This document shows positions 1-57,075 of a DNA stretch of 64,000 nucleotides, piece by piece; the first letter of the stretch is position 1; each line of letters starts with the position of its first letter. A model generated the notes under the pieces. That model was given only the letters and a program-made list of their open reading frames with translations, was not told the origin of the DNA and made no database searches. This DNA comes from Okamejei kenojei (lineage: Eukaryota). Made by a program: the position numbers and the translations under genes. The stretch lies in contig CM069154.1 in NCBI GenBank assembly GCA_035221665.1, forward strand, positions 6,200,001-6,264,000. The letters are read 5' to 3'.

Positions 1-2009
1 CTGGTCCAACAATGGCAATGACTGCACTTCAGACTAAAATCATTGGGGAAAACGGCTGAAAAGGCCCATGCATGGAGAGGGAGCGCAAATTGGTGGCTGA
101 CCAAGGAGGCTTCCATAAACAAGGTATACAAAGAGTCACTATGTATATGGCACCGACTTACAAACTATTCATTACATCCCTATTGGTCCCCCTTTGTTCT
201 CGTCTCCCCCACCCACCCCCCCCCCCCCACCCCCACTCCATGACCCCCTTTTGTTAACACACCCCCACCCCACGCCAGGTCTGCTATGTTCTCAGCAGCC
301 CCCTACCTGGACCAGTGCTGTGTGTTGCCCCATCTTTGTGCCATAGTTGCATTGAAGGTTTCTCTGCTGTAATCGACAAATCTACTTACTTTGAAGAAGG
401 GACTCGACCTGAAACGTCACACATCCCTTCTCTCCAGAGATGCTGCCTGACCCACTAAGTTATTCCATAACTTTGTCTCCTTAGTTTGCAAACCAGCTTC
501 TGCAGTTCCTCATTTTTCCTTCCTTGTTCCCAATGATCAGCAATTGCCATTAAATTACTGAATCTGGGTCAGCTATGCAAATAGCAGCCATTTTGCTCAA
601 TGCATTGAACGATGCAGTCTCCTTCCTCACACCCATCCCCAACATAGACTGAGAGGAGTTATGTTACAGTGCAAACATCTTCTCTCTACAACTCAAGGTT
701 GTGGGTTCAAATCTCATCACAGCACCTGAGCAAGTAACCCACCTGAACACTTGAGTGCAGAATGAGTGAGCGTGTCGATCTACAAGGCACCTCCAGCATC
801 GCAGGAGACACAGAAAAAAAGGAAACACAAGTTAGAGATGGCAAATATTGCATATTGAAGATGATGAATGTGTACTTGCGCAGAGAATGTTTCTGCTTCC
901 AAGAAAAGCCACGCTGAGATCATGTTGAATATTGAGATTAATAAGACACAATAAAGCTTTTTTTTCTCTTCACTTGTGATAATTTTTGACGAGAGTCAAG
1001 GGCGTTTTATTGTCATATATCCGGTAATAGAACAATAACATTCTTGCTTGTAGCAGTAAAACAGGTTTGTAACCACAGTTTCAGAGTCCGTTTCAGTTTA
1101 GTTTATTGTCACGTGTACTGAGGTACAGTGAAAAGGTTTTGATGTGTGCTCATCAGTCAGCAGAAAGACAGTACATGCTTTCAATTGAGCCATTACAGTG
1201 TATAGATACATGATAAGGGTATAACATTTAGTGCTAGGTTAAGCCAGCAAGTGCTCAATGGATAATATAACAAACAAGTTCAACAAATAAATATAATAGT
1301 GCCTATTGGGATCCATATTCAAACCACTCCTAAAGCCCTGGGTTATCAGCTGCATAGCAGGGTGAGCTGTGAAGAGGATATAGAGAGACATTGTGGAATG
1401 CAGTTTGGTTATGTGATGCACGAGGATGTGGGACAACAGGTGAAGAAAGCAGAAATGCTGAACGGTTTTATAAACGACAAGAGATTGAAATGTCTTCATG
1501 TTTAGTTTAGAGATACAGCGTGGAAACAGGCCCTTCGGCCCACCGAGTCTGCACCACCAGCAATTAACTCTACCCTACACACACTGGGGACAATTTACAA
1601 TGTTACCAAGCCAAATATCCTGCACCTGTATGTCGTTGGGTAAAGGAGCAAACCGGAGATCTCAAAGCAAATCCACGTGGTCACGGGGAGAATGTACATA
1701 CTCTATACAGACAGCACCTGTAGTAGGGATCAAAGGTAGACAAAAGTGCTGGAGAATCTCTTCAATCTCAGTGGGTGCAGCAGCATCTATGGAGCGAAGG
1801 AAATAGGCAACGTTTCGGGCCGAAACCCTTCTTCAGACCTGGGTCTCTGGCGCTGTAAGGCAGTAACTCCACCGCTGCGCCTCCGTGCTGTCGAGCAGAA
1901 GGGCACAGATATCCCTGTACATGAATCATTGAAAGTTGACCAATTGTGCAGATATTAGGAAGGCAAACAGCAAGTTGGAAATTCTTGCAAGAAATTTGAG
2001 ACATTGGAC

Positions 2010-3315: not shown

Positions 3316-5332
3316 AAGTATATTGACACTTTGGTTCAATTATATAGGGTTCTGTTGAGACTGCATCTGGAATGTTTTGCATGTTTGGTCACCATATTTA
3401 ATGATGGATATACTTGCAAATAGTGCAGTCAAGATTCATCAGAGCTGCTGCCTCACAGAACCAGAGGCCCAGGTTCAATTCTAACGATAGGTTCTGTCTG
3501 TGAAGATTTTGCATATCCTCCCTGTGACTGAGTGGGTTTTCTCTGGGTGCTCTGGTTTCCTCCGGCATTCCAAAGTTTTGTAGGTTGTTTGGCTTCTATA
3601 ACTTCTCCCCAGTTTGTAAGATGTGAAAGTGGGATCACATAGAACTAATACAAAGGTATAAGATGGTCCGCATAGTGGGCCAATGAGCCGGTTTCAACTG
3701 TATTTAAACTAAACTAAAAATTCAGCGGTCTATAGTCTGATGAAGAAGGGTCTTGACCCAAAACATCACCTATTCATTTTCTTCGGAAAGCTGCAAAATG
3801 TTCAGCGCATAATAATAGGGCCAGTATTGGAATATAGTCACGTAAACACACTCTCTCTGTAACATGGTACTGCACAAATCATCACCAATGTGTCCAATGT
3901 GTACTTCAAATAGCCCTTGCTTTACCTCTGTCTCCATCCCCTCCCCTTTCCCAGTTCCCCGACCAGTCTTACTGTCTCCGACTGCATTCTATCTCTGTCC
4001 TGCCCAATCCCCTGACATCAGTCTGAAGAAGGGTCTCGACCCGAAACTCTACCCTTTCCTTCTCTCCAGAGATGCTGCCTGTCCCGCTGAGTTACTCCAG
4101 CATTAGTGTCTACCAGCGGTATGATTATTGATTTCTCTAACTGCAAGGAACCGTTGCATTCCCTCTCTCTCCTTCTCCCTCCCCCACCCAAATCTTCTTG
4201 CTAATTTCACCGTTTTTTATTCCATCATTATCACCTCATCCCCAGCCAACAATGGACCATTGTGGACACTACCTTTCTTGAGTTATCGATGTGGACTCTG
4301 CGTTGTTCTGTACTTTCCCATACCTCTAGTTTCCCCCTCCCTGACTCACAGCCTGATGAAGGGTCTCGACCCAAAATGATTCCTATGCCAATTTCTCCAG
4401 AGATGCTGCCTGACTCGCTGAGTTACTCCAGCATTTTGTGTCTATCCTAGACTATGATTGATTGTGAAATAAGCAATATGGGAGTTTATTTTTAGAAAGT
4501 TTATCTAAGTAATAGCTTCAAAGTGTAGATGCACCCATTCCGTTTTGTAAACACTTTAACAGTTTCCTAGTTCTTATTAAAAGCTGTTGTGGAATAACAT
4601 TGTCTCCACATAGGTTATCTCCAAATTATACTACACCGATTATTTAATATATGATGTATGAAAGATAAAATGGCTCCAGATCATGGGTGAAGAAATGAGA
4701 AACTTGACTGTTTCAACAGCATTCTCGACATTAGTAATGAGTTTTCATGTATCATATATATGGTCTATGGTATACAGACGCAGTTAGCTTTTACCTCTTG
4801 TTCTGTATTATGTTTACATAATCTGTTGTGCTGCAGCAAGCAAGAATTTCATTGTCCTATCTGGGACACATGACAATAAAACTCTCTTGACTCTTGACTC
4901 TTTTTCCATTCTTTGCTAATCTTGGTGTAGTACACGGTAACCCTTCTGTCTCCTTTGTCAAATGGAACCTGCCAATGTCACTGATTGTCAAAGCCATATT
5001 GTATGGCCTTGAACTCAATGTCCTTCTTGGCCATTACAGGCAGACAATTAGTGGTCACACATTTTGGTGGGTTTGGAAGGTGACATAAAGAGGAGAGAGG
5101 GAGAGGGGGGGGGAGCTGAGACAGGGGCAGTTGGTGGCAGATGCACCCAGAGAAAGTGAGGGATGATGGGTGGAAGATGAGGAGGGGTGAGATTTGAGAC
5201 AAGAGGCCAGTGTCTGGTTGGGGAAAAAGACAAAGGAATAAACAAGGTTCAAGTGAATTAGATGGAGATATCTGGTGGTCTTTAGACTCACCGTGCAACA
5301 GTACCTCCAATACTACCTCACTCTCTCTGTAG

Positions 5333-5645
5333 GTAGCACGGTGGCACAGGGGTAGAGTTGCTGCCTCACAGCTCCAGAGACCCAGGTTTGATCTTGACTA
5401 CAGGTGCTGTCTGAAAGGAGTTCGTACGTTCTCCCTGTGACCATGTGGGTTTTCGCCACTTGCTCCGATTTCCTCCCACGCTCCAAAGACGTGCAGGTTT
5501 GTAGGTTAATTGACTTCACTAAAAATGTAAATTGTCCCTAGTATGTGTAGTGGGATAGTGCCAGTGTCGGGAGATCACTAGCTAATGTGGACTTGGTGGA
5601 CAGAAGATCCTGTTTCCGCGCTGTATCTTGAAAGTAAAGTGTAAA
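5333..5645 (+). mobile_element. tRNA-derived SINE (HE1/V-SINE-like); related copies near 1500-1890, 3445-3720, 9357-9670, 14140-14415, 28710-28980, 43240-43445 and 58225-58495
   Basis: gcacggtggcacaggggtagagttgctgcctcacagc head with a B-box-like ggtttgatc; short-repeat tail. Confidence 0.75.
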
Positions 5646-6836
5646 GTCAGTTCTTCAAGGCAGTGGAGGGTGACCCAGGGATTCATCCTAGATCTCTGGA
5701 GTGGAAAGTAACCCTAGAATGTACTGACCCGGGTGGGGGGAGTACAGACATGGCTGGTCCAACAATGGCAATGACTGCACTTCAGACTAAAGTCATTGTG
5801 GCTGAAAAGGGCCATGCATGGAGAGGGAGAGCAAATTGGTGGATGATCAAGGAGGCTTCCCCTCCCCCCCTCTCATTACCACCTCCCCCTCCCTTTACTA
5901 CACCCCCCCCCCCCCACCACCACCCCTCTCTGCCAGCTTTCCCCTTCCTACTAAAGTTTGCCTGGATAAAGGTCCTGACACAAATCATCACCTGCCCATT
6001 CCCCCCACAGATGCTGCCTGATCTGCTGAGTTACACTTTTTTTTAAATACAAATACTTTTACTCAGAAACAAAACAAACATACAAAAAGAAGTAACACGA
6101 TCAAAACAGCCTTTGTGCCATGTTACAAAACAACAGTCATCAATTTAAAAATAACGTTGTCATCATCGGTATTACATTCGACCTCCCGCGGCGACCAGCG
6201 TTCATGGAAGGCCTGCAAAGTCACTGAGTTACACCGGGACTTTGTGTTGGGCTCAAAGGTAAGTGAATGTCCAGACACGGGTTCGACCATTCGGCCCCAC
6301 GCTAACAGCCATTTCACCCATGCCTCTTCCTCCCTTTCCCCCCAGTCTACTGCCAAATATACCCCTCCCTCTGACTTTACATTTCGCTTCTCTGCTCTCT
6401 TACCTTACAACCTTTGGACCAATTTTCACCTCCAGTCTTTGTCCACCCGTGAACCAGTCAAAATTACCCCCTCATCTGTGTCCACTTGTTGTGATGCCTG
6501 TCCCGCTGAGTTACTCCAGCATTGTGTCCCTATCTTTCACCTGTCACTTGCCAGGCTTTATCCCATCTCCACCTCTCTGCTAGCTTTCCCCCACTCTACT
6601 TTAATCAGTCTGAAGAAGGGTCCCAACCCGACACGTCACGAGTCCATTCCCTCCACAGATGCAGTCTGATCTGCTGAGTTACACCGGCACTTTGTGTTTG
6701 GCTCAAGGGTAAGTGAATGTCCACACACGGGTTGGACCATTCGGCCCATCGTTGCTTCGGGGAAGAGTGGGTGGGCCAGCATAAGCTGTGTTAAGTAGAT
6801 TTGTCCTGTACATGTTCTGAACATTTTTCCTCTCAG

Positions 6837-7157
6837 TTTCAGGTGCACTGTGGGCAACGAAAACTGTAAGAGGAGTTGTGGGAAAAGATATCACAATCGA
6901 TTGTTACTATGCAGCAGTGCACCGCTCATCCACAAAGTACTGGTGTCACGGGTGGACTCGCTGGTGCACAGTTTTAGTGGAAACAAAAGGGCAACACGGA
7001 CGGAGTGGAAGAGTGTCAATCGCAGATGACAGGGCACGAGGAATATTTACTGTGACTGTGGAGGATCTTCACTCTGGAGATACAGGATGGTACAGCTGTG
7101 GAATTACTACACCTGACCTTGATCCAATGTTTGAGGTTCATCTCCAAGTATCTGACG
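6837..7157 (+). CDS. Gene 1 V-type Ig exon, CD300/pIgR-like (MDIR-like receptor)
   Basis: Acceptor tttttcctctcag|TTTCAG (alternative in-frame AG at 6842); donor GAC G|gtacgt; phase 1/1. Encodes (V)SGALWATKTVRGVVGKDITIDCYYAAVHRSSTKYWCHGWTRWC...DTGWYSCG...LQVSD, with the KYWC-x6-C extra cysteine pair typical of CD300/pIgR V domains. Confidence 0.9.
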
Positions 7158-10925: not shown

Positions 10926-11929
10926 CACCCGCGGGAGCGTCCCCACAGTCACTGACCGCGATGCACCGCTATCGGACCCCACCCTACACACCAGGGTGAT
11001 CCCCGCCCCCCCACCCCCCCCCCTCCGACCCCGGACTTTGTCACCCACACCAGGGTGATTCACCCCGGCCGCGGGGACAGACGGTTTATTTATTACCATC
11101 TCGGTGTTTGCTGAACGCACCCAAGCTCCCACGCACAAAACAGACAGCATCTCTTTTTAAGGCAGAAGGCAGTAATTTGATGGAATGCCGTTGCGATAAG
11201 TGCTGGTCATTTATAACCAAGGATATACAATTTCACGATCATGGCAGGATTACAAACGTGTTAGTTTGTGTGAATCTGTGGAGGAACTCCAGTAATCTCA
11301 CAAAATTTAAGTGAGTCTACTTGCACGTCGGTACATAAATTATAACTCTTATTTTTCTCAAAGTGAGTTGTGAAACGTAGCTCCCAGCTGGCGTGGAGAC
11401 GCTCAGAGGGGAAGTCCAGAAGAGAATGTGAATGGTTTACATCAGCGAGGCCAAGCAAATCCTCGGCCACAGTTTCGCTGACCACTTGTGCTTGGTCTGT
11501 CATGACCCAGAATCGCGCTTGACAGACACCCCATCCTCAACCTCCCCCGCTGATGCAGAGCAGCAGCAGTTTGCACCATCTGCACAATGCACTGCAGCAA
11601 CTCACCAAGACTCCCCAGGCAGCGCCTTCCAATTGCAACAGGCTCCGTGTTCAATGCATTGTTCTTCCCCATTCACACCCACATTGGCTGGGAAGCGATT
11701 TGGAACGACCTGTGCAGATGGTGAGGGACGGTGTACAGTATCTGTCTCTCATCGCAATCTAGGTGGAATTCAACAGAGTCACTATCAACAATTTTATACA
11801 AGGAAATTAAAAAGTTGTTGATAGTGATACTTTTGCACTAATTGCGTGTTTGAATGTTGGTATTGTAGAATTGTGGCAGAGTTTCAGATTCAAAGAAGAT
11901 TAACTGCAGATGCTGGAATTGTAAAACAA

Positions 11930-12317
11930 AAGGAGATGGTGCTGCTGTGTACTGGTACAGTGGCACACATGGTAGTTCTGGCAGCTGGGAGGATGGAGAG
12001 ACACTGACATGTATAAATCTGGTAAATGGGTTGTGAGGAGAAGGAGCTTTCTGACGGGTAATTTGGCTGTCGCTTTGAAATGTAACGTTTGAGTAGCTGA
12101 CATTGTCCTCCTTTGCACTAGGAGTGTCCCTGTCGATTTCCTTCATAATTGCACTGCTGCATACACAGTTTGATTTTGATTAGACAAATGGGCACCTTCC
12201 TTGTTGCTTTCATGTCCGACAGTGTTGCAGTGGTGTTGGCTCGAAGGGCCGAATGGCCTCCCCTGCACCTATTTTCTATTTTCTATAACCAATGCTCCCT
12301 TTTCCTGCTGGCAACTC
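11930..12317 (-). pseudogene. Inverted relic cytoplasmic exon encoding ITSM/ITIM motifs
   Basis: Minus-strand acceptor tcattttctcttttattttccag|GA GTT GCC...; GVASRKREHW-[short CR1 3' tail]-CNTVGHESNKEGAHLSNQNQTVYAAVQ-(frameshift)-MKEIDRDTPSAKEDNVSYSNVTF; the lower-coordinate end is approximate. Confidence 0.7.
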
Positions 12318-12379
12318 CTGGAAAATAAAAGAGAAAATGAGCTTTATATGATGATTTGTCTGATTTGTGATCGGTTTTA

Positions 12380-12885
12380 ATCAACATGTTGTAGGAAAGA
12401 TGTCAAGTTGAAAAGGGTGAAGAGAATATTTACAAGAATGTTGCCAAAACTTGAGGGCCTGACCCAGAGGGAAAGGTTGAGCAGGCTAGGACTTTATTCC
12501 TTGGAGCGCAAGAGGATGAGGGGTGATCTTATAGAAGTGTACAAAATCATACGAGGAAGAAATCAAGTAAATGCACAGAGCCTTTTGCCCAGGGCAGATG
12601 AATCGAGAACCAGAGGGCATTGTTTTAAGTGGAGGGGGTTATGATATAACAAGATCCTGGGGAGTAACTTTTTTTTAAACAAAGGGTGGTGGGTAGATGA
12701 AATGAGCTACTGATGGAGGTAGTTGAGGCAGGCACGTTTATGAAACATTTGGACAGGTACATGAATCGGATAGGTTTAGACGGTTATGGGCCATGCACAG
12801 GCTTGTAAGACAAGTGTCGATGGGGTGTGTTGGTCAGCGCGGGCAATTTGGGCGGAAGGGCCCGTTTCTACGCTGTATGTATCTG
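12380..12885 (+). mobile_element. Old CR1 3' fragment upstream of the C2 exon (same insertion at about 56480-56960 and partly 21745-22640)
   Basis: RLGLYSLERKRMRGDLIEVYKI; same position relative to C2 in all three genes. Confidence 0.75.
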
Positions 12886-13003
12886 TGCCAATATGAAAGA
12901 TTCCAAACTGGTGGCTCTGGCTGAGATAAAGATGAGGTGAAAATTGTAGTGTCTCATTTTCAAATGCTCACTCAGTGTCTCACTACCTGCTCCATTCCCA
13001 CAG

Positions 13004-13324
13004 AAACCCTGTCTGCTCCTGTGCTTGGATTTCTGTCACCAGCCAATGTCTCCTGTCTTGGGGGCTCAGTGACAGTGTCCTGTGAGTCGGTGCGGGGATC
13101 CCTTCCCATTGGCTACGCCTGGTATGAAAAGACCCCATCTGTGGATTCAAAGATCTCTGACCACTATGCCCTGGATCTACATTGTCAATCATTCAAACAC
13201 CAACACCATCAATATTATTGCACAGCCTCAAATAAATGTGGATCAAAATCCAGTGAAATGGTCAATGTGTCCATCTCCAGCAATGACGGTCCCTGCAGTT
13301 TCCTTGTGAAAATCGACGGCACTG
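13004..13324 (+). CDS. Gene 1 C2-type Ig exon (FCRL-like)
   Basis: tccattcccacag|AA ... ACT G|gtaagt, phase 1/1; ETLSAPVL...VSCESVRGSLPIGYAWY...YYCTASN...PCSFLVKIDGTG. Confidence 0.9.
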
Positions 13325-14599: not shown

Positions 14600-14648
14600 G
14601 TCATGAATATTCTTGTGAACATTCGATAACACCCAATTACTCTGCAAG
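14600..14648 (+). CDS. Gene 1 stalk micro-exon
   Basis: ttccttgttccaacag|GT CAT GAA TAT TCT TGT...GCA AG|gtaaag; 49 nt, phase 1/2; GHEYSCEHSITPNYSA; paralogous copies at 29150 and 58691. Confidence 0.8.
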
Positions 14649-16401
14649 GTAAAGCGCTCTGTTTCCAATGAAAGTTACATTGTACTAATTGCTGGTGTGC
14701 TAATTCGGAATGGTTTAATTGGGAGAAAGTTGTGCCTTCCTTTCACTGGCACATGCGTGAGAGTATTGATCTGAATGCTCAGTGGCACAGCCTGTAGAAT
14801 CACAGCCTCACAGCGCCAAGACATAGGTTCATTAGGTGCTGTACTGCTGTCTATGTGTGGTCTGTAAGTTTTGCCTTCAATTGTGTTGGTTTCATGTAAG
14901 TGCGCCAGTTTCCTCCCAGCTCCCAAAGGCGTGTCAGTTGTAAATTTGGACGGTAGTGGTAGTTGATGAGAAAGTGGGGAAAATAAAAATAGGATTGACA
15001 CAGGAATCGTGTGAATGCAGTTGACTGAACGGCCAAATGACCTGGTGCTATACTGTGTTTCTCTATGGGTCTTTGATCCAAGGAACCCAAATATCAGGAA
15101 GCATAATCAATGTTTGTACATGTTTCAAGCCTGACACAAATATAAATGTATCTCTTAAATATAATTTAGTAATATATATAATTTGCAAACCAGTTATTAG
15201 TTAGCTCATCAGAACTGGGTTTACATCTCATTGTGGTGTGTATATGCTTGGACGACAAGAACAAGTTCCTCCATTTGCTGTTTTTCAGAGAGCACTCCCT
15301 GCGGTATTCACCATGACTTATCCATCACTAACCTCATTCCATGCTGTGAGACGAATATAGTTGTCAAACCCAAGTCTTGCCGTTTACCTTTGCCGAGACT
15401 TGCTCTGGTGTGGTGCTGATAGGAAAATGCATTATGAATTATGGGCTAAGACACCCCCCTTGATATCACTTGTGGCAAAACCTTGCTATTGATGGGATCA
15501 TACACCAAAAATTCGCTGGCGCAGAATGTGAGAAGACAGTCTTGAATCAGACCGAAATCAGCGAACTCAGTTAACTGACCCTCTCTTACATTGAACCTTG
15601 AAACCATTAAAAAAATATTATCCTTGAATATTCCATCACAATATCGTCATGAAAGTGGGAACACTTTGTTATTTATCTTATTACAATTGAAATAGGCCTG
15701 GCTTTCCATCACACTCTTGTGTGATATTTGCGTTAGGAAATAAGAATGTTAATAAAAGGCACGCCGTTATGAGCGAACCTTTAACCAAGCACGATTTCCC
15801 CATCCACACACCTACCGCGTTAATCCAAGTAATAACGAGGGTGTGAGATTAAGTATTATCATGTTTAATTACTTTTGTTAATTGGCCTCACCTGTTTCCA
15901 TATCTATTGCCTCACCTCCCTTCCACCATTAGAATTGATCCGTTTTTATCATTCCTGTCTATCCATATGGATTTTATTATAATCTTCCTAGCAGCTGCAT
16001 TTTCTTTCTTCCATGGTATTACACAGTTCTTTGTATCCTTACACATGCACAGTTTCCCTCTCCCATGACTCCCAGGCGGAAGAAGGTCTCGACCCAAAGC
16101 CTCACGCATTCCTTCTCTCTAGAGATGCTGCCTCTCCTGCTGTGTTTCTCCAAAATTTGTGTCTATCTACTCATTCTCAGTCTTATAGCCGTGCTCCAGC
16201 AATGAGGTTAGTGTTAGTGATGATGTGTTGTCCCTGCCCCCAGTCCAACACCCGTTATTTCTGCAAACTGATCTCCATTGGCTCTGCTGCCTCGCGCTGC
16301 TCCACTTCACCAAGATTATGGAGCAAATAACAGGTAAATGTTTTAAATATAAACCGTCACATTTTCTTCCATTGATTCAGTATCTCTTGCTCTTTGCCCA
16401 G

Positions 16402-16492
16402 TTACATCTCATGGAGAGTGGGGCGCTGGCTGCTCTTTCTCCTGCTTGTGATCTGGAGTATCTCAACCGCGGTGTTCACAAGAGGCTCTAAG
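16402..16492 (+). CDS. Gene 1 transmembrane exon with Arg (activating type)
   Basis: ctctttgcccag|T TAC...AAG|gtaggt; phase 2/0 fits the stalk exon; (S)YISWRVGRWLLFLLLVIWSISTAVFTRGSK. Confidence 0.85.
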
Positions 16493-17111: not shown

Positions 17112-17159
17112 AGACGTGATGAGTTAGAACCTCGCCACTCGGCCCACGAATTACAATGA
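17112..17159 (+). CDS. Gene 1 terminal coding exon, short cytoplasmic tail without tyrosine
   Basis: ttttcttttgcag|AGA CGT GAT...CAA TGA, phase 0; RRDELEPRHSAHELQ*; paralogue at 31573. Confidence 0.8.
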   Translation, partial: RRDELEPRHSAHELQ

Positions 17160-17543
17160 AGACTCCGAGCTTGCACCATCAGTGAGGGAATTCTGCACCG
17201 CGATGAAATATGTATGCATTATCCTGCTTTGTCAACTCATATCAAATGGACAGAATACATGTCTCTTGCAATTCACTAATGAGTTCATGAAAGTGACTTC
17301 AAAGCAATGTTCCAAACTTTCCAAACCATATCTGTTTCCAAATCTCATTTCCCGCACTGATTTTAATTTTCGTCACATTTTCCAAGGTTTCTTTCTTCAC
17401 CTTCGAACTGTTGTTTTAACCTTTGCATCGTTTCTGTTGCTCCAGCATCTTATACTCTGTTAAACTATATTATATGCGTTCAACTTCCTGGAAAAAAATG
17501 TTTTTCACTGATTAATGAATATTAATGCATCAGAATGCTTCTT

Positions 17544-20480: not shown

Positions 20481-20550
20481 TTAGAGAGATGTGTTTGTAT
20501 CTGAGAGCTCAGAGCTGAGCGACAGAGAGACAAGTGCTGGCATTGCCACT

Positions 20551-20599
20551 ATGGATAAAACAATGTGGATTCCCATTCTCCTCATCTCCTCGCTGCGTG
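20551..20599 (+). CDS. Gene 2 leader (signal peptide) exon
   Basis: ATG GAT AAA ACA ATG TGG ATT CCC ATT CTC CTC ATC TCC TCG CTG CGT G|gtgagt = MDKTMWIPILLISSLR, phase 1; the second ATG (20563) is the one conserved in gene 3. Confidence 0.8.
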
Positions 20600-20864
20600 G
20601 TGAGTGATAGCCAGAACTGAATATTCTAATAATCAATGTTAGTTGGGGCCCCGTGTATTCTTTCCACAGCAGAGATGGATACATATGTGTAGACATGTAA
20701 TGGGGGCAATGGAACTCAGTGCATTTTTTTTAAAGAAGGAACTGCAGATGCTGGAGAATCGAGGGTACACAAAAAGCTGGAGAAACTCAGCGGGTGCAGC
20801 AGCATCTAAGGAGCGAAGGAGATAGGCGACGTTTCGGCATATACTCCAAGACAATTGTACCAAT

Positions 20865-21745
20865 AGTCAATAGGTCCAAGAGTAGGCTATTCCGCACTTC
20901 GAGGCAGCACCGCCAATCACTGTGATCATTAATGATCATCCACAAGCAGTACCCCCTTTCTGCTTTCTCCCCATATGCCCCCACTCCGCATTCTTTAAGA
21001 TCTCTATCTCTCTCTTGTGAAAGCATCCAGAGAATTGGCATCCACTGCGCCGCCTAGGATTGTTGAAAGGCAGCTCATAGAAACATAGAAACATAGAAAA
21101 TTGGTGCATGAGGAGGCCATTCGGCCCTTAGAGCCAGCACCACCATTCATTGTGATCATGGCTGATCGTTCCCAATCAATCAATTGTGCCTGCCTTCTTC
21201 CCATATCCCTTGATTCCACTAGGCCCCAGAGCTCTATCTAACTATCTCTTAAATCTATCCAGTCACTTGACCTCCACTGCCCTCTGTGGCAGGGAATTCC
21301 ACAAATTCACAACTCTCTGGGTGAAAAAGTATCTTCTCACCTAAGTATTAAATGGCTTCCACTTTATTCCTAGACTGTGGCCTCTGGCCTCTGGTTCTGG
21401 ACTCGCCCAACATTGGGAACATTTTACCTGCATCTAGCTTGTCCAGTCCTTTTATAATTGTATATGTTTCTATAAGATATCCCCTCATCCTTCTACACTC
21501 CAGTGAATACCAGCCTAGTCTAATCAATCGTTCCTCATATGACAGTCCCGCCATCCCAGGGATCAATCCCGTGAACCTACGCTGCACTGCTGCAATCACA
21601 AGGATATCCTTCCGCAAATTAGGAGACCAAAACTGGACACAATACTCCAGATGTGGTCTCACCAGAGCCCTATACAACTGCAGACGAACCTCTTTACTCC
21701 TTTATTGAAATCCTCTTGTTATGAAGGCCAATATTCCATTAGCTT
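20865..21745 (-). mobile_element. CR1 LINE 3' fragments
   Basis: ORF 21348-21677 LVRPHLEYCVQFW; atagaaacatagaaacatagaa tail. Confidence 0.85.
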
Positions 21746-22769
21746 GAAATGATTTCACAAGAGCAACTTATTTACACAAAGGTTGGCAGGTATATGAAAG
21801 GAACTGCCCCGGAAGTGATTATGGGAGGTACTATCGCAACATTTAAGAAACATTTAGACAGCTACATGAATAGGATAATGTTAGAGGGTTAAGGGCCAAG
21901 CGAGTCAAAGTCAAAAGTCAAAGTATCCTTTATTGGTCAGAACGAAATTTCGTTGCCTTGCAGTCATCCATATAATAAAAAACAAAACACACAATAAGTA
22001 CAAATTTAACATCCACCACAGTGAGTTCAACAGGCACCTCCTCACTGTGATGAAAGGCAAAAGTCTTAAAGTCTTTGTCCCTTCCCTCCTTGTTCTCCCT
22101 CTGCGCTGAGGCGATCCATTTCTCCGATGTTATCATCCACTGGACCCGCGACCGAGCCTCCAAAGTCGGGCCGCTGCTACCGCAGCCGCTGGAACGCCGG
22201 AAGTCCGGAACGCTGCCACAGCTCCGAAGTTGGGCCGCCGCCGCCGGAACGCCGCCAGGGCCCGAGGCCGCCAGCTCCACCATTAGGTCTCAGCGCAGAC
22301 GGAGACGGGGGACAAGACAAGAAAAAGTCGAATCCACCAGAAGGAAGAGACAAAAACCATGCCCCCCCCCCCCCCCCTCCCCTCACACACACACCATTAC
22401 ACAACCTAAGAAACTAAATGTAACTAAAACAGACAAAAGAAAACAACAACAAATGTGGGTCCCTTGAAGGTAGACATGGGTGAAATTATTATGGGCAGCA
22501 AATAAGTGGCAAAAGAGTTGAATAGGCCAGGCAGTGCCGCCACTTCCGGAGTGCAGATGGAACTAGTGTACATTGGGTGTTTTGGTCAGCGTGGGCAAGT
22601 TAGACCAAAGGGCCTGTTTCTAAGCTGTTTGACTTTCTGACTCGATGTAGATGGATGGGTCAGATTCCAACCTGGCGGCTCCAGCTAAGATACAGAGATG
22701 GTGGTTATTGGCGAGTGTTTGATTTTCAGATGTTCACGCAGTGTCTGACTGTTTGCTCCTTTCCCACAG

Positions 22770-23090
22770 AACCCATGTCTGTTCCTGTGCTTGGATTTCT
22801 GTCACCTGCCACTGCCTTCTGTCTCGGGGGCTCAGTGTCAGTGTCCTGTGAGTCGGTCAGGGAATCCCTTCCCATTAGCTACAGCTGGTATGAAAATACC
22901 CCATCTGTGGAATCAAAGATCTCAGACAACAGTGTACTGGATCTACATCGTCAAGCCTTCCAAAACCAGGCCCGTCAATATTATTGCACAGCCTCAAATA
23001 ATAATGGATCAAAATCCAGTGAAATGGTCAATGTGTCCATCTCCAGCAGCGACGTTCCCTGCAGTATCATAGTGAAAATCAACGGCACTG
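22770..23090 (+). CDS. Gene 2 C2-type Ig exon
   Basis: ctttcccacag|AA CCC ATG...ACT G|gtaagt; open frame, paralogous to 13004-13324. Confidence 0.85.
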
Positions 23091-23927
23091 GTAAGTAGTG
23101 GAGAGAACATGGAGAAAAAGGGGAAATGGAGGTGGAGTGGTTCATATGATCACAAGTGAGAGAAGCAGAAATAGACAATTCAATCATGGCCTAGCTATCT
23201 TCCGTTCTTCACCCCATTCTCCTGCCTTCTCTCCAAAGCCCAGACACCATGACATAAATGCACGTTATTTAATTAACTTATCAAGATAAAAATGATGGAA
23301 TTATGGTCCATTTGTCAATATTTGATTGCTGGGCTCCTGAAATGGATTGCCCACTGCTGGTGTGTCAACTTCCTAGCTAGAACTACCTCTAATGTTTACA
23401 AAGCTTTTTATCTAGATTTGCAGTGACATCAGTCCCTTCATCATCTCCACATAATCCACACTCAGATCTGGTAAGGGAATGATATTATAGCAGTAAATGT
23501 GGCCACAGTTATACCCCTTTGACGACGGTATCATATTTGGCTACTGTGTTAAATGTTGACCATGCAGTACCATTGATACTCATCCCATTTACAAACACAT
23601 CGTCCATTCTGGCAATTCAGGTACCTCCACCTTCTAGATTTAAAAATATTCCTTGAAACATCCTGCTCTAAAACTTAACCATATCTTATCCACTTTTTTA
23701 CATATATCTGCCGTGCAGAATGTCCCCAAAAAATACCCTATCTATGCCTGCTCACAATTTTGAACACCTGTAATAGGTTCCTCCCTTCCTCCGCCTGCTC
23801 TGCAGGAATTTTTATTTTGTAGTAAAAACCCCTATCCAGCCCCTCTCCATACAGTGTAAAGTTTCATCTCAAGCAATACTCCTCTCAAATGAAAATTGGA
23901 CACTTTTTGATCAGTTTATGGATACGT

Positions 23928-26900
23928 AGAAGAAATATAGAATATAGAGAAACAGAAAATAGGTGCAGAAAACTATTTAACACAAAAATTGAACCCCAAT
24001 ACAGAATTGATTATCTTTGGATCAATGGAAAAGGGAAGCAAACTAACTATATTCCAAGAATCTTTTCTTAATTATGGTCCTAATAACAGCAAAAAAACAT
24101 ACTTAAAATTTTGGAAAAATGCACCCTACACCAACATTCAAAATGTGGATCTCAAACACGTTCCTGTAAACGCTACATCTTGAAGAAAGAAAGAAATGAG
24201 ATTCCTCCTACTAGGCAAAGTAGACCAATTCTTAAAGATTTGGTCTCCTTTTATCAACTTTTTACAAGCATATGGTTTGCAATATAACATAAACCTTAGA
24301 AATTAAATGGTTCAGAAACTGCGTGGACGGATGGGATGGGCAAAAATATTACAAGATAGGTAGATCGCTCTCTAATCTCTCTTTTCTTTACTTTTTCCTT
24401 TTCTTTCAATCTTTTAACTTCTCATCTCTGTCCTTTATTTCTTTTGCTTTCTGTTTCTACTCGCTTGTTTATCTATTCCGACACTCTTTATTTATTTTTT
24501 CTCTCACTGTTCTTTTATTATTGAACCAAAAGTATGAAGTTGTACAAGAATGAAAATATGTATTTATGTATTAGGTACTTAAGTACCAGACTATTGTGCT
24601 TACTTCTAACGAAAATAAACAAACAAAAAAAAAGAAAATAGGTGCAGGAGGAGGCCATTCGGCCTTTCGAGCCAGCGCCGCCATTCATTGTGACCATGGC
24701 TGATCGTTCCCTATCAATAACCCGTGTCTACCTTCTCCCCATATCCCTTGACTCAACTAGCATCTAGAACACTAACTCTCTCTTAAATCCATCCAGTGAC
24801 TTGGCCTCCATTGCCCTCTGTGGCAGGGAATTCCATAAATTCACAACTCTCTGGGTGGGATGGTGATGTGGAAAAACGGTTTTTTCTCCACCCCAGTCTC
24901 TCAAATGACCTCCCCTTTATTCTAAGACTGTGGCCCCTGGTTCTGGACTCGCCCAACATTGGGAACATTTTTCCTACATCTAGCTTGTCCAGTCATTTTA
25001 TAATTGTACATGTTTCTATAAGATATCCCCTCATCCTTCTAAACTCCAGTGAATACAAGCCAGGTTATTCAATCTTTCCAAATATGACAGTCTCACCATC
25101 CATGAACCTACGCTTGCACTGCCTCAATCACAAGGATGTCCTTCCTCAAATTAAGAGACCAAAAAGTTACACAATACTCCAGATGTGGTCTCACCAGAGC
25201 CCCATACAACTGCAGAAGATCTTCTTTACTCCTATACTGAAATCTTCTTGTTATGAAGGCCAACATTCCATTAGATTTCTTCACTGCCTGCTGTACCTGT
25301 AAGCCAACCTTCAGTGACCGGTGTACAAGGACAACCAGGTCTCGCTGTAACCCCCCCCCCCCCCTTACCTAACTTAACCTCATTGAGGTAATAATATGCC
25401 CCCTTGTTTTTGCCGCAAAAGTGGATAACCTCACATTTATCGATATTATACCACCTCTGCCACGCATCTGCCAACTCACTCAAACTGTCCAGGTCACCCT
25501 GCAACTTCCTACCATCCTCTTCACAGTTCACACTGCCACCCAGCTTTCTGTCATCCGCAAACTTGCTAGTGCTGCTCCTGATTCCCTCTTCCAAATCATT
25601 AATATATGTAAACAGTTGCGGCCCCAACACCGAGACTTGCGGCACTCCACTGGCCACTGCCTGCCATTCTGAAAAGGAACCGTTCACTCGTACTCTTTGC
25701 TGCCAACCAACTTTCTATCCATGTCAACACCCTACCCCCAATACCATGTGCTCTAATTTTAGTCACCAGTCTCCCGTGCGGGACCTTATCAAAGGCTTTC
25801 GGAAAGTCTAGATACACTACATCCACTGGCACCCCTTCATCCATTTTGCTTGTCACGTCCTCAAAACATTCCAGAAGATTAGTCAAGCAGGATTTCCCTT
25901 TCATAAATCCATGTTGACTTGGACTAATCCCTTTACTGCTATCCAATGCCCCATTATTTGAGATGCAGACCATCAGGCCCAGGGGGTTTGCCATCCTTCA
26001 GTCCCATTAGCCCACCCAATTTACTATTTCTCGCCAAATTAAAATTTATTTCAGTCCCTCTACTACCTTAGATCCTCTGTCCTCCAGTACATCTGGGTGA
26101 TTGTATGTGTTTTTCCTTAATTACCTATTCTGCCATTTCTTTGTTGCCCATAATAATTTCACCCGTGTCTGCCTTCAAAGGACCCACATTTGACTTTGGT
26201 ACTCTTTTTCCCTTAACATTTCTAAATAAGCTTGTCCTTTATATTCCTGACCAGCTTCCCTTCGTACTTCAGCCGGTATTGCCCGTTTTGTTTCCTTCCT
26301 ATGAAAGTTTCCCAATCCTCTTGCTTCTGGCTACTCTTTGCTGTGTTATTCAACTTTTCTTTTAGTTTTATTCTATCCCTAACTTCTCTTGTAAGCCACG
26401 GTTCCACCGTCATTCCCTTTCGAGTCTACCTTGGCCAGCTCCCCTCTCATGCCTTCATAGTCCCCTTTGTTCAACTGCATCACTGACACTTCCGATTTAA
26501 CTTTCTCCTTCTCAAATTGCAGATTAAAACTAATCATATTATGATCACTACCTCCAAGCAGTTCCTTTACATCCATTTCTCTTATCAAATCTGGTTCATT
26601 GGACAACACTAAATCCAGATTTGCCTTATTTCTGGTCGGCTCCATTACAAGCTGCTCTGAGAATTCATCTTGGAGGCATTCTACAAACCTTCTTTCTTTG
26701 GGTCCTGAACCAACCCTGATTTTCCCAGTCTACCTGCATATTGAAATCCCCCATCACCATAGTGGCATTACCTTTGTTACATGCCAGTTTTAGCTCCTGC
26801 TGCAACTTACACCCTACATCCGGGCTACTATTTGGGGGTTTGTAGATAACACTAATTAGTGTCTTCTTGCCTTTACAATTCCTCAACTCAATCCACAGTG

Positions 26901-28160
26901 ACTCTACCTCGTCAGTCCCTAGGTCTTCCCTTGCAAGGGACTGAATTCCATCCCTCACCAGCAGAGCAACCCACCCCCCCACCCCCCTCCTCTGCCCATC
27001 TGTCTGTACCTTTGGTAGGATGTATAACCCTGAATATTAAGTTCCCAGGCCAGATCCTCCTGCAGCCACGTCTCAGTAATCCCCACAATGTCATATCTAC
27101 CAACCTCTAACTGAGCCTCAAGCTCATCTACTTTACCTCTTATACTTCGCGCATTCATATACTAATACTTTTAATTTTCTTACGCATCTCCCCTTTCACA
27201 TCGATCCCTATTACACTTGGCCATACTCTCCTATCCCTCTTGTGAGCCTCCTTTCCGTTATTTCTGGGGTCATTAACTATCCCTTTACTCTCTTTCCCTT
27301 TAACTCCATCCTCGACTATCCCATTTGACATCCCACCCCCCTTTTTCAGTTTAAAACCACCCGTGTAGCAGTGGCAAACCTGCCTGCCAGAATGCTGGTC
27401 CCCCACTTGTTAAGATGCAATCCGTCCCTATTGTACAGTTCCCCCTTACTCCAAAACAGTCCCCAGTGATCTAAGAATCGAAATCCCTGCCCCCTGCACC
27501 AGTTCCTCAGCCACACATTCAGGTCCCGTATCTCGCCAGCACGATGTTCCTGCCAGCACGAGGAACTAGAACCAAACTGGAGAAAACCACACTTCTGGTC
27601 CAGCTTTTCAGCTCTCTAAAGTCACGCTGCGGAATATTCATCTCCTTCTTTCCGACATCGTTTGTGCCGACATGCATTTCGCGCTTGAGGATTTTCTGCA
27701 CTCTGTCCGTGACATCCTGGATCTTTGCACCAGGAAGGCAGCACACCATCCTCGAATCCCGTCTGTTCCTGCAGAAACCCTTGTCCGTACCTCTCACAAT
27801 GGAGTCTCCAACTACAATGGCGTTGCCATACATTGGCCTCTTTGGTTTTGGCTCAACAGCCGTTTTTGCTTCGCAAGCCAGTCCGCGGCTCAGTGTGATA
27901 ACGTCTTCTGTCCCGACGGCTTCTAAGTAGGTGAACCTGTTCACAAAAGGGACAACACCCGGGGATGTTTGAATTCTTTGTTTCCCTCCCATTCCCACCG
28001 TCACCCACCTTCTCTCTTCCAAAACCTTAGGTGTAATAATCTTACTGTAGGACTTGTCAAGGAACGACTCAGTTTCTTGGACGAACCTGAGGTCATCCAC
28101 TTGCTTCTCCAGTTCCCGAAACACGGTCCTGCAGCAGATGTGCCTGGATGCACTTCTCAC
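23928..28160 (-). mobile_element. Near full-length degenerate CR1 LINE (ORF1 esterase-like, APE endonuclease, RT)
   Basis: ORF1 GDSIVRG..VCCLPGA..HVGTND (27519-28160); endonuclease NARSI..GITETWL..MGDFN..GSDHN; RT fragments 25271-25994; its 3' tail is split by an L1 insertion. Confidence 0.9.
23969..24632 (+). mobile_element. L1/Tx1-like 3' fragment nested in the CR1 tail
   Basis: 15-bp target duplication agaaaataggtgcag (23954-23968 and 24633-24647); AATAAA plus A-rich tail; PNTELIIFG-type ORF2 end. Confidence 0.7.
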
Positions 28161-28164
28161 ATGT

Positions 28165-28705
28165 GTGATACATCGTATAATACATTCTATAATACGCTCA
28201 TATTGCCATATGTGAGTTACTGTGTGGAGATATGGGGTAACACCTACAAAACAAACCTACAGCCGTTATGCACATTACAAAAAGAGCAAAAAGAATTATC
28301 AATAACGTTGGATATCTTGAACATACCAATTTATTATTCTTAATAGTCACATACACTGAAGTTCACCGATCTGGTTCAATTTAAGACTGCACAAAGCAAG
28401 AAATAATTTACTTCCAGGAAATACAAAAACTGTTTATGGAAAGACAGGGCGGGTATAATTTGAGAGGGGAACATAATTTAAAAAAACTCAATTTTGCTAA
28501 ATTTGTATAAGATAATTATAAGCAGTTGAATAAAGGGTGGGAATTAATAAGCTTTGGCTTCTTCCTGCTCCTTTTTGGATACGATTTCATTAATTTATAG
28601 ATATTGTTTATGACACTTTATATTCTTGGTTTTTTTTTGTATGCTGTTTCACACTTACTCTTTATTATTTTATTCTGTTCGAAATAAAGAATTAAAAAAA
28701 AATTA
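28165..28705 (+). mobile_element. L2/Crack-clade LINE 3' fragment
   Basis: YNTLILPYVSYCVEIWGNTYKTNL; AATAAA and A-rich tail. Confidence 0.65.
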
Positions 28706-29149
28706 AATCGTGGAAACAGGCTCTTCGGCCCACTGAGTACACAACGGCTGTTAATCAACAGTAGACAAGTTCCATGGGGACAATTTACAGAAGTGCCCCG
28801 TGTGTATAGGAACCAACAAACCTGCACGACCAGATTGCTGGGGACATTGGAACGCTTTGAGAAACACCACACATTCACAGGGAGGAGGTACAAATTCCAT
28901 ACAGACAGCATCCGTCGTCCGGATCGAACCCGTGCCTCTGGCGCTGTAAAGCAGCAACTCTACCGCTGCGCCACCGTCCCGTACTCGCCTGCTTGTCATG
29001 ATAACATCTTCCATTTGCTGCAAATCACACTGAAGAATCATTACCCTGTATCTTAAGCCTATCAACTCCTTACATCAGACACCCATACTCTCTTCTTCAA
29101 CTGCAAGTGAAAAGCAGTGAAACTGACTTTTATTTCCTTGTTCCAACAG

Positions 29150-29198
29150 GTCATGAATATTCTTCTGAAAATTCGATAACATCCAATTACTCTGCAAG
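29150..29198 (+). CDS. Gene 2 stalk micro-exon
   Basis: ccaacag|GT CAT GAA TAT TCT TCT...GCA AG|gtaaac; GHEYSSENSITSNYSA (Cys replaced by Ser relative to gene 1). Confidence 0.75.
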
Positions 29199-30092
29199 GT
29201 AAACCGCTCTGTTTCCAATGAAAGTTACAAAGTACTAATAGCTGGTTTTTTGATTGGGAAAGCTTTAATTGGGAGGTAGTTGAACCTTACTTTCGCTGGT
29301 ATTGAATGTCGTGAGAGTATAGATCTGAATGCACAGTGGCACAGTCTGTGGAATCACAGCCTCACAACGCACGACCCTGGTTCATTAGGTGCTGCCTATG
29401 TGTGGTCTCATGTATTTCCTTTAATTGTGTTGGTTTAATTTAAGTGCTCCAGTTTCCTTCCAGCTCCCAAAGATGTGCCAGTTGTAAATTGCCCCATGTG
29501 TACAGGAAAGCGGTTTAATCTGTGGATATAAGAACGTTAATACCGCCGATATGAGCGAACATCTAACCGAAATTTCGAACACGATTCCTCCATCCACACA
29601 CCTACCGCGTCAATCCAAGTAATATCGAGGATGTGATATTGAGCATTATCATTTTAAATTTATTTCATTAATTGGCCTCATCTGTTTCCATATTTATTGC
29701 CCCACCTGCTTTCCAACATTAGAATTGATCCTTTTTAATTATTCCTCTCTATTCATATGGATATTATTATAATCTTCCTTGCAGCTGCATTTCCTTTCTT
29801 CCAGGGTAGTACACTGTTCTTTCTATCCTTACTCATCCCCAGTTTCCCTCTCCCGTGACTCCCAGTCTGAAGAATGGTCTCGACCCGAAACTTCACGCAT
29901 TCCTTCTCTCCAGAGATGCTGCCTCTCCCGCTCTGTTTGTCCAGCATTGTGTGCATATCTACTCTGTATTCGCTGTATTCACTGCTCCATCTCATGACTT
30001 GTTTCCCTGTCTTCTCCGAATCCATTTAACCGTGTAATCTCTCATTCCCAGTCTTGTAGCCATGCTCCAGCAATGAGGTCAGTAATTGGTGA

Positions 30093-30221
30093 NNNNNNNN
30101 NNNNNNNNNNNNNNNNNNNNNNNNNNNNNNNNNNNNNNNNNNNNNNNNNNNNNNNNNNNNNNNNNNNNNNNNNNNNNNNNNNNNNNNNNNNNNNNNNNNN
30201 NNNNNNNNNNNNNNNNNNNNN
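30093..30221. other. Assembly gap
   Basis: Run of N. Confidence 1.
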
Positions 30222-30367
30222 CGTCTTTCTCCAAACTGATCTCCGTTGACGCTGCTGCTTCGCCCCGCTCCACTTCACCAAGATAATGAAGCAAATAACA
30301 GGTTAATGCTTCAAAGATTAACCGTCTCGTTTCCTCCCAGTGACTGAACCTCTTGCTCTTAGCCCAG

Positions 30368-30458
30368 TTACATCTCATGGAGAGTGGGGCGCTGGCTGCT
30401 CTTTCTCCTGCTTTTGATCTGGAGTATCTCAACCGCGGTGTTCACAAGAGGCTCTAAG
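30368..30458 (+). CDS. Gene 2 transmembrane exon with Arg
   Basis: cttagcccag|T TAC ATC TCA TGG AGA GTG GGG CGC...AAG|gtaggt; YISWRVGRWLLFLLLLIWSISTAVFTRGSK; lies just after an N gap. Confidence 0.8.
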
Positions 30459-31070
30459 GTAGGTTTTATTGTCATCATGTTCGTAAATTATATGAGCAGA
30501 ATTGGGCCTTTCTGCCCATCATATCTAATCCGCCCACAATCACGGGTGATCTACCCTTCCCTCTCGATCCCATGCTCCTGCCTTCTCCCCAAAACTCTTG
30601 ACATCCTTATTTATCAAGAATATGAAAATCTCCGGCTTTAAAATATCAATTGATTTGGACAGATACAAAAATGCTGAAGTAGCTCGGCGGGACAGGCAGC
30701 ATCTCCGGTGTGAATTGACTTGGCCTCCACAGCCTCCCGTGGTAATGAAATCCGTAAATTCACCACCCTCTGACCAAACAATCACTTCTCTTCGCCGAAT
30801 GTTTCCAAACGGTTTCCATTAATGCTTTCGAATATCCTGTCCATTGATAGAAACAAAAACCGTGCACGTTTTCATATCCTGAAGTTTAACCAAACGTGTA
30901 TGTGGATGATATCACGAGGTTTTGTCAGGTTGTACGTGTGCAGGGTGGAATTCTGTACCCGGTGTGGGTTCATTGGGGTCCATCTTCCAGACAGCATTAT
31001 GTTGGGGGTACACAAAAGGCTGGAGAAACTCAGCGGGTGCAGCAGCATCTAAGGAGCGAAGGAGATAGGC

Positions 31071-31147
31071 GACGTTTCGGGTCGAGACCCTTCTTCAGAC
31101 CAGGGTGGGACAGGGTGGCGACGTTTCGGGTCGAGACCCTTCTTCAG
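31071..31147 (-). ncRNA. Tandem pair of minimal hammerhead motifs
   Basis: Two exact copies of the reverse complement of CTGAAGAAGGGTCTCGACCCGAAACGTC at 31071-31098 and 31120-31147. Confidence 0.55.
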
Positions 31148-31572
31148 ACATGACCAGGGTGGGACATGTCTTTGATTATGGTTTTGTCAGTTTTGGTCTC
31201 CTAATCTCAGTTTTGGTCTCCTAATTTGAGGAAGGACATCCTTGTGATTGAGGCAGTGCGGCGAAGGTTCGCGAGATTGATCCCTGGGACGGGGGGACTG
31301 TCATATGAGGAAAGATTGAAAAGACTAGGCTTGTATTCACTGGAGTTTAGAAGGATGAGGGAGAATCATATAGAAACATATAAAATTATAAATGACTGGA
31401 CAAGCTATTTGATGCTGCTGCACCCGCTGAGTTTCTCCAGCCTTTTGTGTACCCTCGATTCTCCAGCATCTGCAGTTCCTTCTTTAACAGCATTGTGTTG
31501 GGAGCGGTCGGGTCAAATAAAGCGTAGTTCCCACTGTCAGTGAGTCTGATGACTTCACATTGTCTTTTGCAG

Positions 31573-31620
31573 AGACACGATGAGTCAGAATCTCGCCACT
31601 CGGACCACGAATTACAATGA
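31573..31620 (+). CDS. Gene 2 terminal coding exon, short tail
   Basis: tcttttgcag|AGA CAC GAT...CAA TGA = RHDESESRHSDHELQ*. Confidence 0.75.
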   Translation, partial: RHDESESRHSDHELQ

Positions 31621-32634
31621 AGATTCCTAGCTTGCACCAGCATTGAGGGAATTCTGCACCGCGATGAAATATTTATGCATCGTCCTGCTTTGTCAGCAGA
31701 TATCTACTGGACAAAATATACGTCTCTTGCAATTCAACCAATTTCATGAAAGTGACTTCAAAGCAATGTTCCAAACTTTCCAAACTATATCTGTTTCCAA
31801 ATCTCATTTCCCGCACTGATCTTAATTTTTGTCACCTCTTCCAAGGTTTCTTTCGTCACATTCAAACTATTGTTTTAACATTTGCATGGTTTCTGTTGCT
31901 CCAGCATCTTATACTCTGTTAAACTATATTATATGCATTCAACATAAAGGGAAAAAAATGATTTTCACTGATTAATGAACAATAATGCATCAGAATGCTT
32001 CTTAATAAATTGTTATTGTCGATAAATCGCTTGTCCAATTTGTTTTGTGTAGACTGCAACTTTAGTGATGAAGAACAGACTGCAATCAGACTGCTGGATA
32101 ATCCTCCTGTTGTCAAACATTAAAGGCGTTTAGGAAAGGCAATCAATGAATCTTTTAACCATGCTATTCTATCAGGACAAAATTATGCAACGACATTGTT
32201 CAGACGATTAGCATTATTTTTCACTCCACATATGTTGACTGACGCGCTAAGCACATCCAACATCTGCAGATTTAATTTCCGATATGTAGCAAATGTTTAG
32301 GTAGGAAGGAACTGCAGATGCTGATTTAAACTGAAGATACACATCAATTGCTGGGGTAACTCAGCGTGACAGGCGGCATCTGCGGATAGATCAGATAGGT
32401 TTAGGCGGACTGAGCGGCGATGTTCAGCGAAACAATCGCCGAGCCTGCGTTTGTTTTCGCTTCTCGGCGATCGTTTCGCTGAACACCGCCACACAGACGG
32501 CCTAAATCTATCTGATTTCCCGGTCGCTAAACACTTTAACACCCGCTCCCATTCCCACACTGACATTTCAATCCTGGGCATCCTCCATTGTCATAGTGAG
32601 TCCCAGCGCAAATTGGATGAACAGCACCTCATCC

Positions 32635-56442: not shown

Positions 56443-57075
56443 GTAGGTTTCAAATCTGGTAAATTGTGAGGAGAAGGAGCAGCGAAGACTTACACGGATG
56501 TTGCGATGACTTGAGGGCCTGACATACAGGGAGGGGTTGAGCAGATTAGGACTTTATTTCTTGGAGCGCAGGAGGAAGAGGGATAATCTTATGGCAGGTA
56601 AAAAATCATGCGAGGAATAGGTCGATTAAACACACAGAGTCTTTTGCCCAGAGTAGGGGAATCGAGAACCGGAGGACAAAGTTTTAATATGAGGGGGGAA
56701 AGATTTGACAGGAATCTGGGGAGTAACGTTTTTACACAAAGGTTTGTAGGTACATGAAATGAACTGCCGACAGAAGTAGTTATGGCAGATACTATCGTAA
56801 CATTTACGAAAATATTGGACAGGTACCTGAATAGGGTATGTTTGGAGGGTTAAGTGCCAATAAAGGGCAGGTGGAACTAGTGTAGATTGGGCATGTTGGT
56901 CAGCGCGGGCAGGTTAGACCGAATGGACTGTTTCTACGCTGTATGACTCTATGATTCTATGTAGATGGATGGGTCAGATTCCAACCTGGCGGCTCTGGCA
57001 GGTATGATGGATATTGGCGAGTGTTTGATTTTCAGATGTTCACCCAGTGTCTGACTGTTTGCTCCTTTCCCACAG

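Follow-up and report, generated by a model that had tools for sequence, protein, structure and literature searches.

An Antisense Dead Tail Exon of an Inhibitory MDIR-Type Receptor in the V-C2 Intron of Skate Paired-Receptor Genes

Introduction

In the KIR, Ly49 and LILR families, activating receptors with a charged transmembrane segment and their ITIM-bearing inhibitory twins have been reshuffled by recombination and duplication, as described in PMC2213150 and PMC3533184, which also give inverse duplication as the likely origin of the LILR clusters. The rule by which a receptor is called activating from a charged transmembrane residue is likewise taken from PMC2213150. The closest described system for the present locus is the skate MDIR family, which contains activating and inhibitory members resembling CD300, TREM and pIgR (PMC3031540); we took its features from that paper and from the deposited sequences, with UniRef records P0042, P0044 and P0099 standing for MDIR5, MDIR3 and MDIR2 of the clearnose skate, respectively.

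Here, we analyzed a stretch of 64,000 nt from the skate Okamejei kenojei (contig CM069154.1, positions 6,200,001 to 6,264,000), hereafter the window; C24 is the contig carrying the window, and C24 coordinates are contig positions. An earlier note on this DNA had proposed that an inverted, dead ITSM/ITIM exon lies inside an intron of an activating receptor, where it had been captured as the fossil tail of an inhibitory paralogue. The fossil is real, explained and ordinary: several genes of a known paired-receptor family have this antisense pseudoexon in common.

Results

The Host Gene

The exons of the gene hosting the fossil are the following (window positions unless C24 is given):

About C24:6197994-6198051: leader exon, 2 kb before the window.
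6843..7157, plus strand: V-type Ig exon, CD300/pIgR-like; Pfam V-set E 1e-11, best PDB hits pIgR and CD300/CLM-1.
13004..13324, plus strand: C2-type Ig exon, 83% identical to clearnose skate MDIR5.
14600..14648, plus strand: short stalk exon.
16402..16492, plus strand: transmembrane exon with arginines (YISWRVGRWLLFLLL), near-identical to the MDIR5 segment; predicted activating type.
17112..17160, plus strand: last exon, a 15-residue tail without tyrosine.

Leader, V, C2, stalk, transmembrane and tail exons form one open frame to the stop; a putative exon at 16190-16336 was dropped, as the stalk joins the transmembrane exon in frame without it. The host has a V-type Ig domain, modular V and C2 exons and a high identity to MDIR proteins, its C2 domain being 83%, 78% and 64% identical to those of MDIR5, MDIR3 and MDIR2 (121 hits from 189 candidates), and it thus belongs to the MDIR/CD300-pIgR-like receptors. 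It combines a basic residue in the transmembrane segment with a short tail devoid of tyrosine motifs and is, because of the charged-residue rule, likely an activating-type member. The fossil lies antisense in its V-C2 intron, so the location given in the earlier note stands, for a receptor that is activating by sequence type. Contigs of the public runs X2 and X6 cover the C2 exon and not the core of the fossil, and among the RNA runs on record for this species none contained the queried stretch; these gaps weigh neither way.

The Fossil Exon and Its Lesions

The features of the fossil are listed below in window positions, the open copy being the intact exon described in the next section:

12318..12342, minus strand: intronic polypyrimidine tract and AG acceptor accompanying the dead exon; in alignment, the counterpart of the open exon's acceptor, at which the X2 and X6 contigs are spliced.
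12027..12317, minus strand: dead copy of the type-A inhibitory tail exon, from the acceptor to the PHNP codons; 84% identical to the open exon at C24:5881888-5882166, with the motif-4 end missing.
12220..12293, minus strand: relic of motif 1, IGY/ATL (open copy IVYATL); the insert splits the Tyr codon.
12230..12285, plus strand: retroelement 3' end of 56 nt, high copy, in this copy of the fossil only; absent from L002, L003 and L006.
12152..12169, minus strand: motif 2, TVYAAV, ITSM-like (open copy TVYAGV).
12143..12145, minus strand: premature TGA, two codons past TVYAAV (open copy CAA; L002 CGA).
12084..12101, minus strand: motif 3, VSYSNV, ITIM-like (open copy VTYSDV), one frame off motif 2.

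A genome search with 11900-12400 returned 42 matches, 33 of them to the short insert alone; the remaining ones are all on the window's own contig, within 330 kb, and include C24:5881930-5882134 (84% over 206 nt, E 5e-53). One has to keep in mind that the window holds 2 ITSM-then-ITIM pairs against a mean of 3.3 in 30 shuffles, i.e., not above chance; the identity of the fossil is thus proven by homology and not by its motifs. A transposon origin of the motif-bearing part, which would have spoken against the receptor reading, found no support, as every match to that part falls inside this cluster and nothing but the 56-nt insert is dispersed. The fossil was also ruled out as a processed retrocopy, its intronic acceptor standing where a 47-nt exon would be joined; since this acceptor was carried along, the fossil is a copy of DNA and not of a processed mRNA. 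With its homology to a live exon, its preserved intronic flank, its broken frame and its lack of third-position bias, the fossil qualifies as a duplicated, unprocessed pseudoexon. Judged by homology, 12027-12317 on the minus strand is the dead last exon of an inhibitory MDIR-type (CD300/pIgR-like) receptor. The minus-strand acceptor, TVYAAV and VSYSNV were all found where the earlier note had put them; its lower limit of 11930 does not mark the end of the exon, since similarity to the open exon runs out at 12027, short of motif 4.

TVYAAV and VSYSNV are 68 nt apart and therefore in different frames. In total, the fossil carries the insert, two frameshifts (a 1-nt deletion near 12212 and a net −1 shift between motifs 2 and 3, at about 12120-12126) and one stop (TGA), and motif 4 is gone. 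It had been described as broken by a CR1 tail of roughly 57 nt (12231-12287) and a 1-nt frameshift; both lesions exist, with the insert measuring 56 nt at 12230-12285, but the split of motif 1, the deletion near 12212 and the TGA at 12143-12145 had been overlooked. The repeat family of the insert is presumably CR1. Contig depth over it reaches about 1e5-6e5, which marks it as the end of a high-copy repeat, in line with the 33 of 42 genome matches that hit it alone. The three other copies that retain this part of the exon (L002, L003 and L006) all lack the insert, and a contig of X3, a relative, links 12229 directly to 12298 without it (X3 rows were assigned to one contig by their equal depth of 12.5). 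The X3 copy implies that the insert came late and did not kill the exon, contrary to the role first given to it; the insert is probably younger than the capture, as read from these sequences.

The Open Type-A Exon

The open exon, C24:5881888-5882166 on the minus strand, is the last exon of a receptor gene and has 92 codons with four motifs (IVYATL, TVYAGV, VTYSDV and IYATV). It reads ELPT..IVYATL..TVYAGV..VTYSDV..IYATV-stop and joins in frame to the 47-nt exon and a neutral transmembrane exon; a V exon at C24:5903604 heads the gene (C24:5.88-5.90 Mb). Motifs were called with the ITIM/ITSM consensus patterns, and phosphorylated ITIM receptors generally recruit SHP-1/SHP-2. Its neutral transmembrane segment, followed by an in-frame tail with ITIM/ITSM-like motifs, makes the donor-type gene a predicted inhibitory-type member. 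A homologue of the tail, which the earlier note had suggested seeking in the same genome, is thus present and open 330 kb away in the same cluster, and its place as the last exon of a receptor gene supports the reading of the fossil as the tail of an inhibitory paralogue.

Splicing of this exon was read from contig junctions in two of the four public runs: contigs of X2 and X6, which come from two other organisms and two studies and carry no RNA label on record, break off exactly at its acceptor and resume in the 47-nt exon, located 10 kb upstream. X1 contigs cover the inside of the exon only, and X7 gives no coverage. The listed coding differences from the open exon amount to 8 in X2, 6 in X6 and 9 in X1, the frame being open and the covered tyrosine motifs unchanged. 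A protein search with the open exon gave 2 hits among 38 candidates, both of them Rhinoraja models ending in that exon (84%), and all 10 of its protein-level genome matches fall inside this cluster.

The Cluster and the Mosaic Nature of the Host

At 5.87-6.09 Mb the V exons are encoded on the minus strand, at 6.14-6.29 Mb on the plus strand, so that the two halves of the cluster point in opposite directions. Further left, about 30 more distant V exons (30-42% identity) at C24:5114110-5836582 extend the cluster by 700 kb. Four open tails are found in it, namely type A, two of type B (one at C24:6265280) and type C. Types B and C share 80-84% identity with the tails of MDIR3 and MDIR2, and type A is about 33-37% identical to types B and C. 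An intact copy had been thought possible past position 64000, and a real tail does occur 1.3 kb past the window, at C24:6265280, but it is of another subtype (35% identical to the open type-A copy and 80% to skate MDIR3).

Window 52343-63040 and C24:6265280-6265549 together make an MDIR3-like inhibitory-type gene, composed of V, C2, V, C2, stalk, a neutral transmembrane exon and the tail; its motif 1 has no Tyr (IDANL), as in MDIR3. Activating-type pieces occupy window 20503-31640, where a leader, a C2 exon at 22760, a stalk, a transmembrane exon with Arg and a short tail were detected but no V exon, and a more degenerate activating-type set adjoins the second N run at 35801-40890.

The host itself is a chimera with its junction at 11770/11771. 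Left of 11770, it is 94-97% identical to the intron that precedes the second V of four-domain genes, and a second V exon appears, from this alignment, to have been deleted from the host. Given this identity, the deletion or conversion, which removed the second V and one hairpin arm, looks recent. The 5' half of the host is a mirror image of the gene that lies immediately past the open exon: window 113-2001 duplicates, in mirror orientation and at about 86%, C24:5879926-5881802, a segment beginning 86 nt beyond the stop of that exon, and window 4558-6899 is a mirror duplicate (86%) of C24:5871448-5873727. The leader and V of the host descend from this gene adjoining the open inhibitory exon, whose own V is broken.

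Sister Copies, Flank and Hairpin

The 664 kb of cluster contain 18 C2 exons, ten of which form one group (C2a, 92/93 support). The antisense piece precedes seven of these ten, as six clear copies and one remnant, and nothing of it is seen before the other three. Judged by their downstream exons, three of the fossil hosts are of the activating type (the window gene and those at 5954 kb and 6280 kb), two are of the inhibitory type (at 5929 kb and the 56-kb gene of the window) and two are broken (6042 and 6055 kb). The features that accompany the fossils are as follows:

11771..12026, minus strand: flank found, within the 664 kb, in dead copies only (6 copies, each adjoining a fossil); probably an old low-copy repeat.
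11771..11875, no strand assigned: hairpin remnant at the far end of the block; the full form has 145 nt with arms of about 65 nt, one arm being cut short in the window.
12350..12890 (approximate), plus strand: part of an old LINE, truncated at its 5' end, that separates the fossil acceptor from C2 and was inherited together with the fossil.
56449..56480, minus strand: about 30 nt left of the fossil (E 2e-4) where an inhibitory-type gene has its V-C2 intron; one deletion end is shared with L007.

All copies have the same place, the same orientation and the same 3' end, and each is broken differently; L007, for instance, has little of the exon left. At 13 positions the dead copies agree on a state that the open copy does not have, yet in the exon tree open and dead copies are not resolved from each other. 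Among the three longest dead copies, differences by codon position are 10/7/12, 14/8/11 and 20/9/14, with no excess at third positions. In X1, four of the nine differences from the open exon are states common to the dead copies, which suggests that these common states are ancestral.

The 256-nt flank is about 87-92% alike among the dead copies, with one pair at 99%, and part of it matches C33:4740020-4740115 at 73% over about 100 nt. Two candidate identities for it were rejected: as a copy of a common short repeat, it matched a profile of 31 local copies over no more than a 15-nt core, and for a degraded motif 4 the best match was no better than shuffles (23-148 of 300). The full hairpin of L005 folds at −44.3 kcal/mol (z −12.3), the window remnant having a z of −3.2; C33 matches one arm only, at a single locus. 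A high-copy element was also discarded as the source of the hairpin, which has 11 matches, 10 of them at fossils (the search may skip very common words), and a low contig depth.

The six LINE pieces taken from genes bearing a fossil or remnant form one clade (97/98) among 27 copies, with the LINE of the open exon outside; the piece of L007, below the length cut, was left out of the tree. Recombination between the LINE of the open exon and that of the fossil is accordingly unsupported, as the two do not group. Between LINE and C2, window 12600-13003 resembles its paralogues at 76-80%, against 88-92% for the flank and the C2 exon; this segment may, from its lower identity, be a mosaic piece from an earlier-branching gene.

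Origin of the Fossil and Alternative Readings

We consider it likely that a single DNA-level inverted insertion brought an inhibitory tail exon into a V-C2 intron and that gene duplication and neutral decay followed, leaving an inert fossil today. A piece of a type-A tail gene, with acceptor, exon and flank, would have been copied into the V-C2 intron of an ancestor of these genes, possibly during break repair or template switching, in a cluster with two oppositely oriented halves. A fold-back scar may be what the hairpin at the far end of the block represents; the one-armed match on C33 would fit this idea and stems from one locus. In sense, such a copy would offer its acceptor to the V donor, and its stop would cut the receptor short, so that only an antisense copy would be tolerated; being invisible to splicing, it would then have decayed, with the 56-nt insert as a late hit, and have multiplied by duplication of its host. 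Under a single origin, the shared orientation counts as one observation and not seven.

The DNA-like runs X3 and X5 contain the fossil-specific flank and the window-type acceptor context, which makes the capture older than the divergence from those organisms. Since the flank common to the dead copies is missing from the open gene, the true donor may be a lost sister gene. Capture by the window gene in particular, as first proposed, does not survive, for the same antisense piece stands before seven of ten sister C2 exons, two of them in inhibitory-type genes. As for the inversion proposed at the same time, the piece is inverted indeed; an inverted copy fits better than a plain inversion, since the normal position of a tail exon is behind the transmembrane exon and the donor-type gene has kept its own.

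An unlikely alternative holds that the fossil arose in two steps, tandem-gene deletions having first put a tail exon in sense between V and C2, before a small inversion rescued the gene; or else that it is the leftover breakpoint of a large inversion or mirror duplication. The opposite orientation of V exons in the two halves of the cluster (minus at 5.87-6.09 Mb, plus at 6.14-6.29 Mb), the mirror copy of 86.5% over 1.9 kb that window 113-2001 makes of DNA beginning 86 nt beyond the open exon's stop, and the chimeric host with its junction at 11770/11771 all speak for it. More events are needed, however, and in either half of the cluster the fossil runs antisense to its host, which means that it predates the mirror or is independent of it; moreover, an extended mirror block would put the exon on the plus strand near the start of the window, not on the minus strand at 12 kb.

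It is very improbable that the piece regulates, i.e., that the intron RNA of the host, complementary to the inhibitory message, or a small RNA from the hairpin couples activating and inhibitory genes by cross-silencing of the inhibitory twin. The fossil is 84% complementary to a spliced message, the piece is present in seven genes and the hairpin is very stable in several copies; nevertheless, flank copies differ by 9-13%, none of 24 Rfam matches of the L005 hairpin reached the gathering score, including as a microRNA precursor, and erosion has been piecemeal, the window having lost most of one arm and L007 most of the exon, with about 30 nt kept in the 56-kb gene and nothing in three of ten genes. 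Chance motifs in repeat debris would agree with the chance rate of the motif pair in the window, but this reading is refuted by the spliced contigs and by homology to an open receptor exon (DNA match with E 5e-53) whose protein-level genome matches are all (10/10) within the cluster.

Discussion

With an inverted insertion followed by duplication and decay as the preferred reading, the fossil most likely does nothing today. Its interest lies elsewhere: the antisense scar is a marker that tags one V-C2 module through seven genes, and it draws attention to a tail subtype with four motifs that is neither the MDIR2 nor the MDIR3 tail. The fossil had also been seen as a guide to what the inhibitory tail of the family looks like, a use that is not needed, since four open tails exist in live genes, three of them matching the deposited skate MDIR2/3, and the fossil, showing two motifs and not four, adds no tail information. 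Should the antisense piece or the hairpin prove regulatory, it would matter more, as a case of cross-regulation born from an inverted exon. In the literature searched, mostly outside subscription journals, we found no antisense ITIM pseudoexon in the MDIR family.

Among the skate proteins, MDIR5 is nearly matched by the stalk, charged transmembrane segment and short tail of the host, but it is organized as V-C2-V-C2 whereas the host is V-C2. The type-A tail of the donor differs from the MDIR2 and MDIR3 tails, the two with which it was compared, and the fossil, unlike the MDIR proteins, is non-coding. Closest to the donor type are two Rhinoraja longicauda models named "polymeric immunoglobulin receptor-like" (P0002 and P0003), which end in a type-A exon (84% identical across its full 92 residues) and have the same short exon ahead of it, the difference being a Cys in place of the Tyr of motif 3. 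P0003 has two transmembrane segments and the gene order of two neighbors at 5.88-5.94 Mb; from this arrangement, it seems to be a fusion of an MDIR3-like gene with a type-A gene.

Compared with KIR, Ly49 and LILR as described in PMC2213150 and PMC3533184, the skate cluster likewise holds paired activating and inhibitory twins that have been reshuffled. In those families, an activating gene loses its own tail by mutation; the skate fossil, by contrast, is a foreign tail, antisense, upstream of the transmembrane exon and present in inhibitory-type genes too, and it is thus no record of a switch from inhibitory to activating. What the scar does document is the movement of ectodomain modules between tails of the activating and the inhibitory type, a process already known from KIR and LILR.
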